64,000 bases of DNA from a virus. Below are positions 1 to 64,000 of this stretch, one piece after another. The DNA is taken from positions 1 to 64,000 of IMG/VR virus record IMGVR_UViG_3300045988_151351; one strand, 5' to 3'. The notes beneath the pieces are model-generated. The model did no database searches. It worked only from the letters and a program-made list of their open reading frames with translations, and was not told where the DNA came from. The position numbers and the translations under genes were made by a program. Within the stretch, counting starts at the first letter, position 1. Each line of letters starts with the position of its first letter.

Positions 1-78
1 CATCTTCAACAGGTGTTTTTAAATATCGTACTTCAACTACTGGAACTTGGACAGCCGTACCTGTGGCATATACTTAAT
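1..78 (+). CDS. 3' end of upstream gene (partial), T/W-rich tail similar to C-terminus of the glycine-rich fibre protein
   Basis: Open frame running into window, ends TAA at 76-78; peptide ...TGVFKYRTSTTGTWTAVPVAYT. Confidence 0.3.
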
Positions 79-95
79 TAAAGGAGGTAAGTAAA

Positions 96-533
96 ATGGC
101 AAAGCCTAAACTTATAGAATAGATTGAAAATGCGGGCGGTGTATTTATAGCAACTAAAGATACTACCACTTATCAAGAAATTAAAAATGCTTGGGATAAT
201 GGCAAAGACGTTATTGTAGTATTTGATTCAGATATTTTTATGCTAACTGAAATTCCTACTGGTAGTAATACTATAAAATTTTATTATAGAGATTTTCGTA
301 ATAGAGGCTATTCTACTACAAATACTAAATATCTAACATTAACTTCGGCTAATGTTTGGTCTTCATCAGCAATAGTTGAATAGCCAACATAGTTGGGTAA
401 ACCAATAACTGGAAATGGTGATACTCCAATTAGTGCATCAACAAGATATTTACGTCCAATATTAATATCTACCGCGGAACCAACAGCATCAGATGGTAAT
501 ATAGGTGATATCTGGATACAATATGAAGATTAA
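96..533 (+). CDS. hypothetical protein (3 in-frame TAG codons)
   Basis: RBS AAGGAGGT at 81-88, ATG 96; frame open to TAA 531-533 only if 3 TAGs are translated. Confidence 0.55.
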
Positions 534-549
534 TAAGGAGTTGATTTAA

Positions 550-1587
550 TTGGCAACATATGATTTAACTTCTACAATTCCAAGTAAAATAAAAACAGGC
601 GATATATTAAATTGTCCTTATAGCGGTTCCGCGAAATAGATCACTTTACCTTCTGGAAAATATAAGCTTGAATGCTGGGGCGCTCAAGGTGGAGATTATA
701 ATACTACCCATATCGGTGGACGCGGAGGTTATTCAACAGGGATCATTATATTAAAAAATAAAACAACAAAATTATTTTTATATTCTGGAGGATAGGGAAT
801 AGCTTATAGTGGTTCTACTAACACTACTAATTTACAAAATGGAGGATTTAATGGAGGTGGAAAGGGTGCTCGTGCTAGCGGAGGAGGAGCTTCTGACATC
901 CGATTAAATACAGATTCTTTATATGCTCGTTTAATAGTATCTGGAGGTGGAGGAGGAGCCGGATATTATAATAGAAGTGATTATGGGTCAGGAGGATCAG
1001 GTGGGGGTTTAAGCGGATACGCTGGAACCTATTAGAATAAACCAGACACATATAGTGCTGGCCAAGGTGGAACCCAAACTACTGGTGGAGCTGCTGGGAC
1101 TTACAAATATAATGGAACAGGTGGAAATGGGAGTTTTGGTGTCGGCGGAAATTCTGCTACTAAATCAAGTTTTTTTGGAGGCGGAGGAGGAGGCGGCTGG
1201 TACGGCGGTGGAGGCTCCTCTTACGGTTCTTATGGAGAAGGAGGCGGAGGCGGCGGTTCTGGTTACGTATATACATCATCAACTGCTTCTAACTATCCAT
1301 CCGACTGTTTACTTAATTCGTCTTATTATCTAACTAATGCTCAAACAATTGCTGGTAATACTGCATTTACTTCTCCAACAGGTACAAATGAAACAGGCCA
1401 TACGGGTAATGGTTATATACGCATTACTGTTATAGAAGCCAGTTCCGGAAATACTTTAGTAAAAACTACTTCAAATACCTGGAAAGAATAGAAACAAACA
1501 TTTATAAAAACTACCGCTAATACTTGGAAACCTATAAAAGGTGCGTGGACAAAAATAAATGGTACAACTTGGAAACAAGTTTTATAA
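550..1587 (+). CDS. glycine-rich repeat protein, tail-fibre-like (Gly_rich/PF12810-like); TTG start; 4 in-frame TAG
   Basis: Long runs of GGxGG/GGGGG, motif CWGAQGG; frame 1 open from TTG 550 to TAA 1585-1587; GGAG RBS at 535-538. Confidence 0.6.
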
Positions 1588-1642
1588 AATTTGAAAATAT
1601 ATAAAATTTATGTTATATTATAATTAGAAAAGGAGGCATATA

Positions 1643-2788
1643 ATGTTAGATATTATTATTCCTTGTTTTAATGAGCCTAAATATTTAGATAGATTATTAA
1701 CAAGTATAAAGCGAAAAACAAGTGATTATATAAAAATTAATGTTTATATTGTCGATGACTGTTCTAATTATAGTACAGAATATAAAGAATTAATTACTTT
1801 ATATAATTAGTATTTTAAATGTTTTTATTTAAAAACTAATAAAAATTCTGGACCAGGTATAGCTAGAAATTTAGGATTATAGTCATCAAATGATTAGTAT
1901 ATTACTTTTATTGATGATGATGATATAATTATTGAAGATATATTATCATATTGTATTTCTGGATATGATTTTATTATATCTGAAATAAAAAATTGGGATA
2001 AACAAACTAATAAAAATTTTCCTTATATAAAAGCATTATGTTATATTAATTCTATTTAGGGTATAGTTTATAATAGAAATTTTATTAACCAATATAATCT
2101 ATAGTTACCAAATTTAAGTAAAGGAACTGAAGACTCTATTTTTAGAGTTATAAATTTTTTGTTAAGTAAAAATATTAAAATTATTGAAAATAAATCATTT
2201 TATTTTCGCATATATCGTAGTAATTCAACATTTACTAAAAATTATAATTTATCAAAATCTACTATAAATAGAAATTCTTTTAATTTATTAACAGAATTAA
2301 TTTGGTTATCAAATTTATATTTAGAAATAGATAAATATATTAATCATTTTCCTTAGTTAAAAAATGAAGATTTTTTTATTAAAAATTTATTAAATATTTT
2401 AGATTATTTAATAAATATAAGTTATATAATAAATTTATCTGATGAAAAAAATAGTAAAGTAAATATAAAATTTCTTACTGAATATTATTATTTATTTTTC
2501 TATTTTATTAATAATTTTTTATCAATTGATTTATTAATAAAATTTCAACAAAATAATAATATTTCTCAAATTGGATTATTATTTATTAGTTTGGCATTAG
2601 TTTATACTAAAAATGATAATAATTTATTAATTACTAATTTTCAAGATTTTATCTTATCTAAAGAATATTATATATATTTACAAATGTTTGATAATTTTGA
2701 AAATTGTATTAATTTAAGTTTAGTTACTTATACAGATATGACAAATTTAATTAATTTATATAGTGGAAAATATTATGAGAATTATTGA
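1643..2788 (+). CDS. family-2 glycosyltransferase (GT-A fold), 6 in-frame TAG
   Basis: Motifs IIIPCFNE, VDDCS, NSGPGIARN, FIDDDD; AGGAGG RBS; joins ORF-track pieces 2159-2356 and 2591-2788 in same frame; ends TGA. Confidence 0.7.
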
Positions 2789-61813: not shown

Positions 61814-61814
61814 T

Positions 61815-62351
61815 ATGTCAAATATCTTAATTATTAATTTTGATTTAGTATTAGAATAGTATATTCCAATTTTAAAAAATATTAATACAATGGACTTTAA
61901 AGATTATTCTATTATTTCCAATAATTTTATCTTAGATTCTAATTTATATAAAATTATTACAAATTTTTTTAATAAAGCTATAAAAAAAAATAATAGTGAT
62001 ACTATTTCTTTTTATAGAACTTTGAATTCTTTAATACCAATCTTATCTGATCAAAAGGATTTAATAATAACAGATATTAGCTATAATGATATTAATATTT
62101 TATATCAAAATAATATTAATATTTAGCGAGGAATTTGGTTGAATGGTAGTTTTTCTCCTGCTATTTCTTCTAAAGTAAATAATATAAATAATTTATTATT
62201 ACCTAGTTATACGATTTCTCCAGTAATATATGATAATATTTTTGTTATAGGAAGTTTAGATATAATACCAAAAAATTTATATAATTATTTTTATTTATGG
62301 ATTGACTTAGCCGCAAATCAAAATAATACATACTATAAACTATTGGAGTAA
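61815..62351 (+). CDS. hypothetical protein (2 TAG)
   Basis: ATG 61815; track ORFs 61890 and 62139 same frame. Confidence 0.4.
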
Positions 62352-62356
62352 TTAAT

Positions 62357-62627
62357 ATGATAGATAATTCAATGCTTGATTCATCTTTAGTTGCTATGTT
62401 AAATAGTAATATGTTTTTAAAAGATGAAAATTTGATGAATACATTAAGAGGTAGTGTCGCAGAAACTATTAAAAAGGTAAATAATGAATTATAGGATTTA
62501 GACGGCAAAATTGTTACTAATTCAATTAATCATCAAATGCTTGACAATAAACTTAAAAATTTTGTACGCGATATAAAATAGGTTTGTGATCGCTATTTAG
62601 ATAATTGCTATTATTGATTTTTTCACA
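62357..62627 (+). CDS. hypothetical protein (2 TAG)
   Basis: Frame open to TGA ~62625. Confidence 0.3.
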
Positions 62628-62672
62628 AAATTATGTTATAATATTTATAGAAATGTAAGAAAGGATAATTAA

Positions 62673-64000
62673 ATGAGAAGTTATTTTGGTATTCATAATC
62701 ACACTCATTATTCTAATATTAGACTATTAGACTCAATTAATCGTCCTCAAGCATTAATTGATAAAGCTATTGAATTAGGTTTATCTGGAATAGCAATTAC
62801 TGACCATGAATGTTTATCTGCGCATATGGAAGTTAATCAATATGCGAAGAAATTATAGGAAACAAATCCTAATTTTACTATCGCACTTGGTAATGAAATT
62901 TATTTAACTGAAACTCGTCAAACTGGACAAAAATATTATCACTTTTTATTATTAGCTAAAGATGCTATTGGTCATAAAGCATTAAGAGAATTAAGTTCTA
63001 TTGCTTGGATTAATAGTTATATTGATAGACGTATGGAACGTGTTCCTACTTTAAAAAGCGAATTAAAAGATGTAATGTCTAAATATAAAGGTCATGTTAT
63101 TGCTACTACAGCTTGTATTGGTGGAGAACTTGGTAGTTGTTTACTTCCAATGTATGAAGCTAATTTAGTTAATGACCAAAATACAGTAACTAATTATTCA
63201 ATTCAAATAATGGATTTCATTAATTATTGTATTGAAGTATTTGGTGAAGATGATTTTTATCTTGAGTGTGCGCCTTCTAATAAAGAAGACCAGATGATTG
63301 TTAATAGACAAATTTATAAAATATCTCAATCTACTGGATTGAAAATGGTAATTGGTACTGACTCTCATTATTTAACAAAAGAAGATAGAGCAATTCATAA
63401 AGCGTATTTAAATTCTAAAGAAGGCGAACGAGAAGTTGATACTTTCTATGAATTTGCGCATTTAATGACAAGCGATGAAATCTTTGAATTAATGGAAAGT
63501 GATGCTGACACTTGGGATAGTAATAAATCAGGAAAAGAAATTTTAGATTGGATTTTAGATAATACTCAAAAAATTCAAAGTAAAATTTCTTTTTATTCTT
63601 TAGAAAGAAAGCAGATTATTCCAAAAGTAGAAGTAACTGATTATCCTCAATCATTAGCTGGTTGGTTTGAGCGCACAGAAAAATATCCTATTTTATGTAG
63701 CTTATTAATGAGTGATAACCCACAAGAAAGATATTGGGTTAATGAATGTTATATGTCTTTATTAGAAAAGATATATGATAAAAGTATTTCAGATGATAAG
63801 TTAGATATTTATTTAAATCGTCTTGAAATTGAAGCTGATATTATTAAAGATATTGGTGAAAAATTGGATGATTGTTTGTTTGCTTATTTTAATACTTTTA
63901 AACACTATATTGATTTGTTTTGGAAATGCGGTTCTATTGTAGGTCCTGGTCGTGGTTCAGCAACAGGATTTTTATCCAATTATTTATTAGGTATTACACA
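62673..64000 (+). CDS. dnaE: DNA polymerase III alpha subunit (DnaE-like, PHP domain), 5' part; continues beyond window
   Basis: PHP-type N-terminus FGIHNHTHYSNI...DHE; ...IVGPGRGSATGF; TAG at 62856 read through. Confidence 0.8.

Follow-up and report, generated by a model that had tools for sequence, protein, structure and literature searches.

A ~200-kb human-gut phage in which TAG is a sense codon, very probably read as glutamine, with uneven use between gene sets

Introduction

Can phage genes that are broken up by the amber codon TAG be whole genes and, if so, which residue does the codon stand for in them and how is it decoded? The question is raised by a stretch of 64,000 nucleotides (positions 1 to 64,000 of IMG/VR virus record IMGVR_UViG_3300045988_151351; hereafter the window), for which an initial annotation, made without database searches, had proposed a genome-wide reassignment of TAG. 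We find that TAG is a sense codon in this phage and is used unevenly between sets of genes, and we consider it highly probable that UAG is read as glutamine (genetic code 15), with only UAA and UGA terminating; a suppressor tRNA is the decoder that we propose.

The window corresponds to positions 445-64444 of the NCBI metagenome contig ULXM01060006.1 (GCA_900524635.1, 143,769 bp), and the same phage was recovered in a separate human-gut assembly (ENA ERZ919498 k127_103588, 201,103 bp) and in Logan assemblies. It is a phage of ~200 kb, common in human-gut metagenomes, with SPbeta-like replication genes and Firmicutes-type signals. The GC content of the window is 30.6%, and its plus strand, which carries all credible genes, is C-poor, with a GC skew of +0.11 to +0.25 throughout. 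In IMG/VR we found 39 relatives by the marker protein g24 (56-99% identity), many on contigs of 160-200 kb, and metagenome contigs with homologs of the RecJ and helicase genes number in the hundreds. The GenBank phage collection, searched at both the nucleotide and the protein level, contained no close relative: the best match to GyrA had at most 43% identity, and the g24 protein, which resembles major vault protein (MVP), matched only huge phages of 462-735 kb, at 40% identity. No terminase gene was found in the window or in the flanks fetched from outside it (5.4 kb upstream and 6.8 kb downstream, so that ~76 of ~201 kb were read in total).

Results and Discussion

TAG is a sense codon

Open reading frames (ORFs) were called on the plus strand with TAA and TGA as the only stops, which yielded 86 tightly spaced ORFs, each with a Shine-Dalgarno site; of these, three that overlapped tRNA genes were dropped, leaving 83 genes. 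TAG occurs in frame in 38 of these, about 130 times in all. The in-frame stop triplets number 129 TAG, no TAA and no TGA, all three being frequent out of frame. Coding density of the plus strand, 68.4% under code 11, rises to 90.6% when TAG is sense and is 69.2% when TGA is sense instead; in the first 11 kb of the window (block A, below) it goes from 42% to 96% once TAG is translated. The 82 genes that end inside the window do so with TAA (62) or TGA (20). This, and a density that is unmoved with TGA as sense, bears out the proposal that genes here end in TAA or TGA and that TAG alone is reassigned.

The placement of the TAGs is that of a sense codon. None of the genes needs TAG as a terminator, although a few (e.g. 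g74) have a C-terminal TAG that would fit either role, and 73 of the 82 genes ending inside the window have no TAG within their last 30 codons. In-frame TAGs are evenly distributed over gene deciles, and the base 3′ of them is like that after sense CAA, unlike the T/A-rich context of true stops.

Homology leads to the same result. With X placed at TAG positions in the proteins, Pfam searches confirmed the GT2, radical-SAM, aldo/keto-reductase (AKR) with Fer4, PhoH, CHAP with Amidase_2, DnaB_C, DHH/RecJ_OB, AAA_30/UvrD_C_2 and PHP/DNA_pol3_alpha families, and the primase was confirmed by PHROGs. Matches in Pfam, PHROGs and the PDB cross TAGs in the GT2, radical-SAM, AKR, PhoH, endolysin, DnaB, primase, RecJ and Dda-like proteins. 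It had been claimed that such homologs can be assembled only if TAG is translated; every gene named in that claim does contain in-frame TAG, and homology spans these codons and continues on both sides of them.

The genes concerned, all on the plus strand, lie in two parts of the window. Towards its start are the GT2 gene g03 (1643-2788, 6 TAGs), the radical-SAM genes g08 (5138-6517) and g09 (6495-7937), with 8 TAGs each, and g11 (8484-9503, 12 TAGs), an AKR with a C-terminal 4Fe-4S domain (Pfam Aldo_ket_red, E = 1.9e-20, and Fer4 families), in which PDB alignments span four TAGs. Further along are the PIN-PhoH gene g56 (38514-39776, 4 TAGs; Pfam PhoH, E = 1.3e-24), the endolysin gene g57 with CHAP and Amidase_2 domains found by Pfam (39845-41149, 3 TAGs), the radical-SAM gene g73 (53380-54330, 6 TAGs, 19% GC), the DnaB-type helicase gene g75 (54852-56381, 2 TAGs), the PHROGs-identified primase gene g77 (56581-57684, 2 TAGs), the RecJ-like exonuclease gene g78 (57710-59425, 14 TAGs), the Dda/RecD-like SF1B helicase gene g83 (60620-61813, 8 TAGs) and dnaE (g86, 62673 to the end of the window, 1 TAG). 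The g78 protein aligns with RecJ of PDB 8y30 (E = 2.6e-28) over residues 47-562, across its TAGs.

An obvious objection is that the interrupted genes are pseudogenes, or the TAGs errors of sequencing or assembly, and that TAG is still a stop. The genes are indeed fragmented under code 11 and the window is without a suppressor tRNA. Decay or error is nevertheless hard to reconcile with ~130 TAGs and no TAA or TGA in the same frames, with TAGs at invariant Gln sites of essential replication proteins, with homologs on hundreds of contigs, and with relatives that conserve the TAGs or exchange them for CAA/CAG. The TAGs are also not sequencing or assembly errors because independent assemblies reproduce them (57 of 57 in the ENA human-gut contig and 44 of 45 in the Logan assembly). 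We give this explanation practically no weight.

Glutamine is the best-fitting residue

A public protein collection already translates these TAGs as Q, and many database homologs are affected in this way, which makes protein-level Q counts partly circular. Evidence on the residue was taken from codon comparisons with relatives, from PDB alignments and from JGI/NCBI-sourced homologs.

Among diverged relatives, the predominant non-TAG residue at 81 aligned TAG positions is Q in 30 cases, E in 12 and K in 10; Q also reaches the highest BLOSUM62 sum (302, versus 192 for E). At the codon level, CAA/CAG is by far the commonest counterpart of the window's TAGs in five relatives, at 14-23 positions per relative (21 of about 41 in L249 and 23 of about 44 in L250; L-numbers denote loci or contigs of related phages). 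Between near-identical assemblies TAG and CAG replace each other, once in one direction and twice in the other. In g78, relatives have CAA/CAG at 9-10 of the 14 TAG positions.

Solved structures place TAG at invariant Q in five families (Dda, RecD2, PhoH, DnaB and RecJ). TAG140 of g83 aligns with the invariant Gln of motif III (GDxxQLPP) in PDB 9kwf, 3upu (T4 Dda) and 3e1s (RecD2); two TAGs of g56 pair with conserved Gln residues of PDB 3b85, one in DEAQN and one in TQVD; TAG396 of g75 aligns with the Q of the SQL motif in PDB 2q6t, where relatives have CAG, CAA or TAG; and the last TAG of g78 aligns with the Q of the C-terminal PQI motif. The eight JGI/NCBI-sourced homologs of g83 have Q at four of its eight TAG sites, with variable polar residues at the rest.

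Judged by these alignments, glutamine is the residue that fits TAG best, and the initial annotation's assignment of the codon to Gln is supported both by the codon comparison with relatives and by the structures; when aligned residues are tabulated at TAG, Q comes first (30 of 81). The particular sites on which that assignment had leaned, in GT2 and AKR motifs, do tolerate Gln, but they are variable polar sites and are not diagnostic. In crAss-like phages, reading of TAG as Q has been shown by proteomics (PMC9523058).

Might TAG be sense and yet stand for something other than Gln, be it Glu, Lys, His, Tyr or pyrrolysine? After Q, the residues most often aligned with it are E and K, a His stands opposite one AKR TAG, ARAGORN labels CUA tRNAs 'Pyl', and tRNA sequence similarity does not settle their identity (pairwise comparison did not reveal the parent tRNA of the CUA tRNAs, and the result was not used). 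Set against these points are the wide margin by which Q is the top aligned residue, the TAGs at invariant Q in five protein families and the TAG/CAG polymorphism between near-identical genomes. No pyrrolysine-pathway family (pylS, pylBCD) was among the Pfam hits for the window, and where phages have been reported to read this codon differently from their host, the change is always TAG to Gln (10.1101/2021.08.26.457843; PMC9523058). A residue other than glutamine is therefore very improbable in our view.

TAG use is gene-specific and conserved

The proposal of a genome-wide reassignment needs qualification: TAG is reassigned, but its use is uneven, being confined to 38 of the 83 genes, and between 13.6 and 37.7 kb there are only 6 TAGs against 218 CAA/CAG codons. 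Three blocks, all on the plus strand, can be told apart. Block A (1-11331, genes g01-g13) is TAG-rich, with Gln codons CAA 73, CAG 2 and TAG 53, so that TAG makes up 41% of them. Block B (13605-37589, 35 genes) is TAG-poor (CAA 79, CAG 139, TAG 6), has codons rich in AAG and CAG, and encodes an SLH protein, a DUF2828/DUF7788 protein, the MVP-like protein, cREC_REC, phosphoesterases, an exonuclease, RNA ligase, an NAD-salvage set and a flotillin. Block C (37769-64000) holds lysis, replication and recombination genes and is mixed (CAA 170, CAG 30, TAG 71). TAG use differs between block B and blocks A and C together at p = 2e-20 (Fisher), and the TAG fraction of genes drops with rising AAG preference (rho = -0.62, p = 1.5e-6).

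Within block C, genes of similar composition are heterogeneous in TAG use (chi-square p = 2.4e-6): RecJ (14 of 18 Gln codons), radical-SAM g73, the Dda-like helicase, a GIY-YIG gene and PhoH are TAG-rich, and GyrA (0 of 19 Gln codons), GyrB, ligase, DnaB, primase and DnaE are TAG-poor. The endolysin and the tail-fibre region contain TAG. These preferences recur in relatives. Avoidance is kept in g24 (0 of 1071 Gln codons over 39 relatives), g22 (0 of 340) and g53 (0 of 227), and across relatives TAG accounts for about 33% of Gln codons in RecJ and PhoH and for 22-27% in GIY-YIG and g74. TAG usage is gene-specific and conserved in the lineage. Its overall density here is ~3 times that of four of five compared relatives and similar to that of the fifth, L251.

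Several gene groups within these blocks deserve description in their own right. In block A, genes g03-g13 (1643-11331) form a 10-kb cargo cluster (GC 16-25%, GC at third codon positions 6-15%) that encodes the GT2, a 4Fe-4S (Fer4) protein, two radical-SAM proteins, the AKR-4Fe-4S fusion and proteins without assigned function. Genes g10-g13 are unmatched in L002, whose g24 is 99% identical, and the rest of the cluster lies outside the L002 locus; the only relatives, weak ones (22-31% identity), are two radical-SAM genes on one other phage contig (L255). The cluster looks recently acquired and, because TAG provides 41% of Gln codons in block A, it has probably moved between TAG-recoded genomes.

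In block B, g22 (DUF2828/DUF7788) stands beside g24, of 828 aa with MVP repeat and shoulder domains (15996-20317 together); both are strongly AAG/CAG-biased (in g22, Lys is AAG at 34 of 34 and Gln CAG at 10 of 10 codons) and TAG-free in all relatives. Genes g41-g47 (28352-33534), none of the seven containing TAG, encode an isochorismatase/nicotinamidase, a PRPP-synthetase-like phosphoribosyltransferase, NAMPT, a macro domain, NAD synthase, an HNH endonuclease and NADAR, and look like a phage NAD-salvage/ADP-ribose-processing set of the kind linked to counter-defence. At the end of the block, g53 (36201-37589) encodes a protein of the flotillin/band-7 (SPFH) type whose long repeat region is rich in Ala, Glu and Lys; it has CAG at 24 of 24 Gln codons and is without TAG in nine relatives.

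A host-type promoter family

A sigma-A-like promoter family, TTGAYTTTT-N12-14-TATAATAT, often with a TG extension before the -10 element, is present in 21 copies between 3687 and 62644, all intergenic and on the plus strand. The repeat is highly conserved and is followed by ATAGAAAG and a Shine-Dalgarno site; the reference copy lies at 29757-29808. Fourteen copies fall between 9.5 and 35 kb, and several are directly 3′ of terminator hairpins; others precede gyrB, ligase, yorF, radical-SAM g73 and dnaE. The copies start at 3687, 9505, 11328, 12223, 12427, 12636, 14712, 15885, 20696, 24251, 26766, 28013, 29757, 33729, 34741, 41675, 46912, 48429, 50752, 53316 and 62614. The family also occurs in related phage contigs. 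TAG makes up 10-18% of Gln codons in genes at most 3 kb from a promoter and 32-47% in those further away or with no upstream promoter.

These promoters, together with the SLH protein, the CHAP and Amidase_2 endolysin and SPbeta-type genes, confirm the Firmicutes-type context that had been noticed from the sequence. That recoding should sit together with such a signature had been presented as a peculiarity; both are real, but their combination is not unusual, since recoded gut phages with predicted Firmicutes hosts have been described (10.1101/2021.08.26.457843).

A model for decoding and for the split in TAG use

We propose that UAG is decoded by a suppressor tRNA (anticodon CUA) that would receive its amino acid from the glutamine pathway of the host and would outcompete release factor 1. 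The gene for it would lie outside the window; relatives carry one in the same tRNA array. Genes needed before, or without, efficient suppression would keep CAA/CAG and avoid TAG. This set would comprise the short units of block B behind host sigma-A-type promoters, together with gyrase, ligase, DnaB, primase and DnaE, and we take such TAG-poor genes to be those that host RNA polymerase transcribes early, or whose expression is very high, and that have kept to the standard code. The tail-fibre region, the cargo cluster, PhoH, endolysin, GIY-YIG, RecJ and Dda-like helicase, in which TAG is 25-80% of Gln codons, would for that reason depend on the code switch for full-length translation. A model in which early genes of recoded phages stay compatible with the standard code has been put forward before (10.1101/2021.08.26.457843).

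The uneven use of TAG might also be without regulatory meaning, arising from a one-way mutational drain from CAG to TAG, by C to T changes on the coding strand, that is checked only in highly expressed genes, where selection favours efficient translation. The plus strand is C-poor, with the positive GC skew given above; where TAG is common there is hardly any CAG (in block A, 2 of 128 Gln codons); the TAG fraction falls with rising AAG/CAG preference; and RecJ has gone from 2-3 TAGs at these positions in relatives of 65-69% identity to 14 here. Drain alone fits less well with the conservation of TAG-rich or TAG-poor status gene by gene across relatives, and with the TAG-poor gyrase and DnaE, which share the AT-rich codon usage of their TAG-rich neighbours. 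As a full account we rate it as a serious possibility, though below even chances. Drain and the early-gene model are compatible and can both hold, and such a drain, acting on a coding strand poor in C, is probably at work alongside the timing that we propose.

Where is the decoder?

The window contains one tRNA array (11403-13540, plus strand), in which ARAGORN and Rfam identify Thr(UGU), Leu(UAA), Gly(UCC), Lys(UUU), Ala(UGC) and Cys(GCA). Relatives with 56-75% identity in g24 do have a tRNA(CUA): it lies in or beside the array in L015, L016, L031 and L033, elsewhere in the fetched loci of L022, L025 and L039, and also on the contigs of L014 and L020. In relatives of ~75% identity it is found 0.7 kb upstream of tRNA-Thr; here and in the relatives of 81% and 99% identity, cargo or tail-fibre genes occupy that space. 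The group contains at least five unrelated tRNA(CUA) sequences, so its turnover is high and relocation common.

Several observations count against our reading, most of them concerning this tRNA. No tRNA(CUA) was found in the window, by ARAGORN or by Rfam at gathering and E-value thresholds, nor in the 5.4 kb upstream and 6.8 kb downstream, which brings the coverage to ~76 of ~201 kb; none lies next to tRNA-Thr here or in the relatives with 81% and 99% identical g24; and no release-factor or aminoacyl-tRNA synthetase family was among the Pfam hits of window and flanks, in which some small ORFs were unscanned. The tRNA(CUA) and release-factor genes for which the initial annotation had advised a search are, then, both missing from these ~76 kb; release factor 2 and synthetase genes are in any case only occasional in code 15 phages. 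On the residue, protein-level Q counts being partly circular, only the codon-level and PDB evidence is independent, and at codon 108 of g11 (8805-8807) two AKR structures have His (YxxH). On timing, the distinction of early from late expression is drawn from promoters and codon usage alone and must be taken as provisional; promoter distance and TAG fraction are weakly correlated (rho = 0.27, p = 0.054), and the promoter-proximal g73 holds 6 TAGs. As a separate observation on g11, its codon 108, if read as Gln, would differ from both AKR structures.

These absences raise the possibility that UAG is decoded without a suppressor tRNA of the phage's own: by a near-cognate tRNA-Gln with inhibition or depletion of release factor 1, by a modified host tRNA, or by the tRNA of a co-infecting phage. 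The ~76 kb without tRNA(CUA) include the array where relatives keep theirs, and this array has 6 tRNAs as against 14 in L164, the locus of a 75% relative; moreover, a suppressor tRNA (Sup-CTA) is detected in only 40-52% of TAG-recoded phages across surveys (10.1101/2021.08.26.457843; PMC11210395), the upper figure being that for code 15 phages (PMC11210395). On the other side, about 125 kb of the genome lies outside the part searched, and the variety of tRNA(CUA) types in the group points to frequent turnover and relocation. TAG density here is matched only by L251, the other four loci having about a third of it, and because it is this high among the compared loci, loss of a dedicated decoder is unlikely. 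There is also a contig, L200, from the sample of the 99% relative, that has a tRNA(CUA) behind the same promoter family, which we treat as a lead only. We think decoding without a suppressor of its own unlikely, while giving it appreciably more weight than a different residue. Equally doubtful is the more specific variant in which the phage has no tRNA(CUA) at all and UAG is read through a non-canonical tRNA missed by the tools, a re-targeted host tRNA-Gln with inhibition of release factor 1, or some other element; were it true, the TAG-free units behind host-type promoters would encode the set-up of the switch.

The suppressor tRNA that we favour was also sought in the relatives. A family-specific tRNA(CUA) pattern matched 12 contigs, none from the 81%-identity relatives; a pattern combining the promoter with the anticodon loop matched nothing but coding sequence in the relatives; and the g02-related loci fetched to look upstream of the window were all at most 48% identical and uninformative. 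L200 (IMGVR_UViG_3300026522_000470) is a contig of 17 kb that shares its sample with L002, the 99% relative, and its tRNA(CUA), at 842-916, is part of an eight-tRNA array with the shared promoter family upstream. This may be the suppressor locus of the present phage species, although no link could be shown.

Relation to other recoded phages

The phenomenon itself is already established, and this is a further code 15 phage. Reassignment of TAG to Gln is described for crAss-like, Lak, Garnet and Amethyst phages and for some Sapphire, Agate and Topaz members (10.1101/2021.08.26.457843; PMC9523058; PMC11210395). Read in code 15, such phages reach a coding capacity of 90%, up from about 67% (PMC11210395); recoding varies among their replication genes, and their early genes keep the standard code (10.1101/2021.08.26.457843). 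The match to stop-codon-recoded lineages that had been suggested for the window holds on codon comparison, solved structures and ORF statistics alike. As in those phages, TAG is the sole reassigned stop, Gln is the deduced residue, GC is low, the source is the human gut and density rises from ~68% under code 11 to ~90% under code 15; recoding is partial, varies among replication genes and extends to the endolysin, some genes remain readable in the standard code, and a suppressor tRNA is present in relatives.

The differences are that no close relative exists in the GenBank phage collection searched, that the suppressor tRNA is neither in the window nor at the relatives' position, and that the genes free of TAG form a 24-kb block, made up of short units with host-type promoters in front and including NAD-salvage, MVP-like and flotillin genes. 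Modestly new, in our view, are a ~200-kb lineage with an SPbeta-like replication module and no GenBank relative, a sharp and conserved separation of TAG-free from TAG-rich gene sets, and the absence of the suppressor tRNA from its usual place despite high TAG density. The Sapphire clade of Borges et al. is about 201 kb, with which the size here (201 kb) is compatible, a lead only. The large human-gut phage phAss-1 (proposed Phassvirus; 136 kb, TAG in 41 ORFs, 3 suppressor tRNA genes; PMC10607447) differs, by its description, in genome size, and our phage has no nucleotide similarity to any GenBank phage record in the collection searched. With SPbeta-like Bacillus phages it shares the YorF, YorH, YonG (YonG_N) and YomU families, matched by Pfam in the replication module beside DnaB, primase, RecJ and a DnaE-type polymerase; unlike here, those phages use the standard code, and apart from YorF the hits are weak.

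Annotation of this phage in the standard code loses a third of its coding capacity, including replication and lysis genes; automated tools have already caught the recoding, since the public collection has Q at TAG in these genes. The code 15 phages gain a large and abundant lineage from the gut that bears Firmicutes-type signals. Its TAG-free set behind host-type promoters is partitioned unusually clearly from its TAG-rich accessory, recombination and lysis genes, which makes the lineage a useful one in which to test whether the timing of gene expression is set by recoding; it is relevant, too, to how UAG is decoded in the roughly half of recoded phages without a detectable suppressor tRNA.

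Variable and neighbouring genes

Some of the genes described above vary between assemblies. Radical-SAM g73 is a polymorphic insertion located between the AAA_24 and YorH genes: this phage and L251 have it, and L041, L043 and L044, the last of them otherwise near-identical, lack it. The surroundings of the Dda-like helicase vary as well. Near the start of the window, g02 (550-1587), beside tail-fibre-like genes, encodes an ALK/LTK-type glycine-rich domain (PF12810, E = 2.7e-48), whose homologs are found on about 80 IMG/VR contigs, often ~9-10 kb from the contig end.

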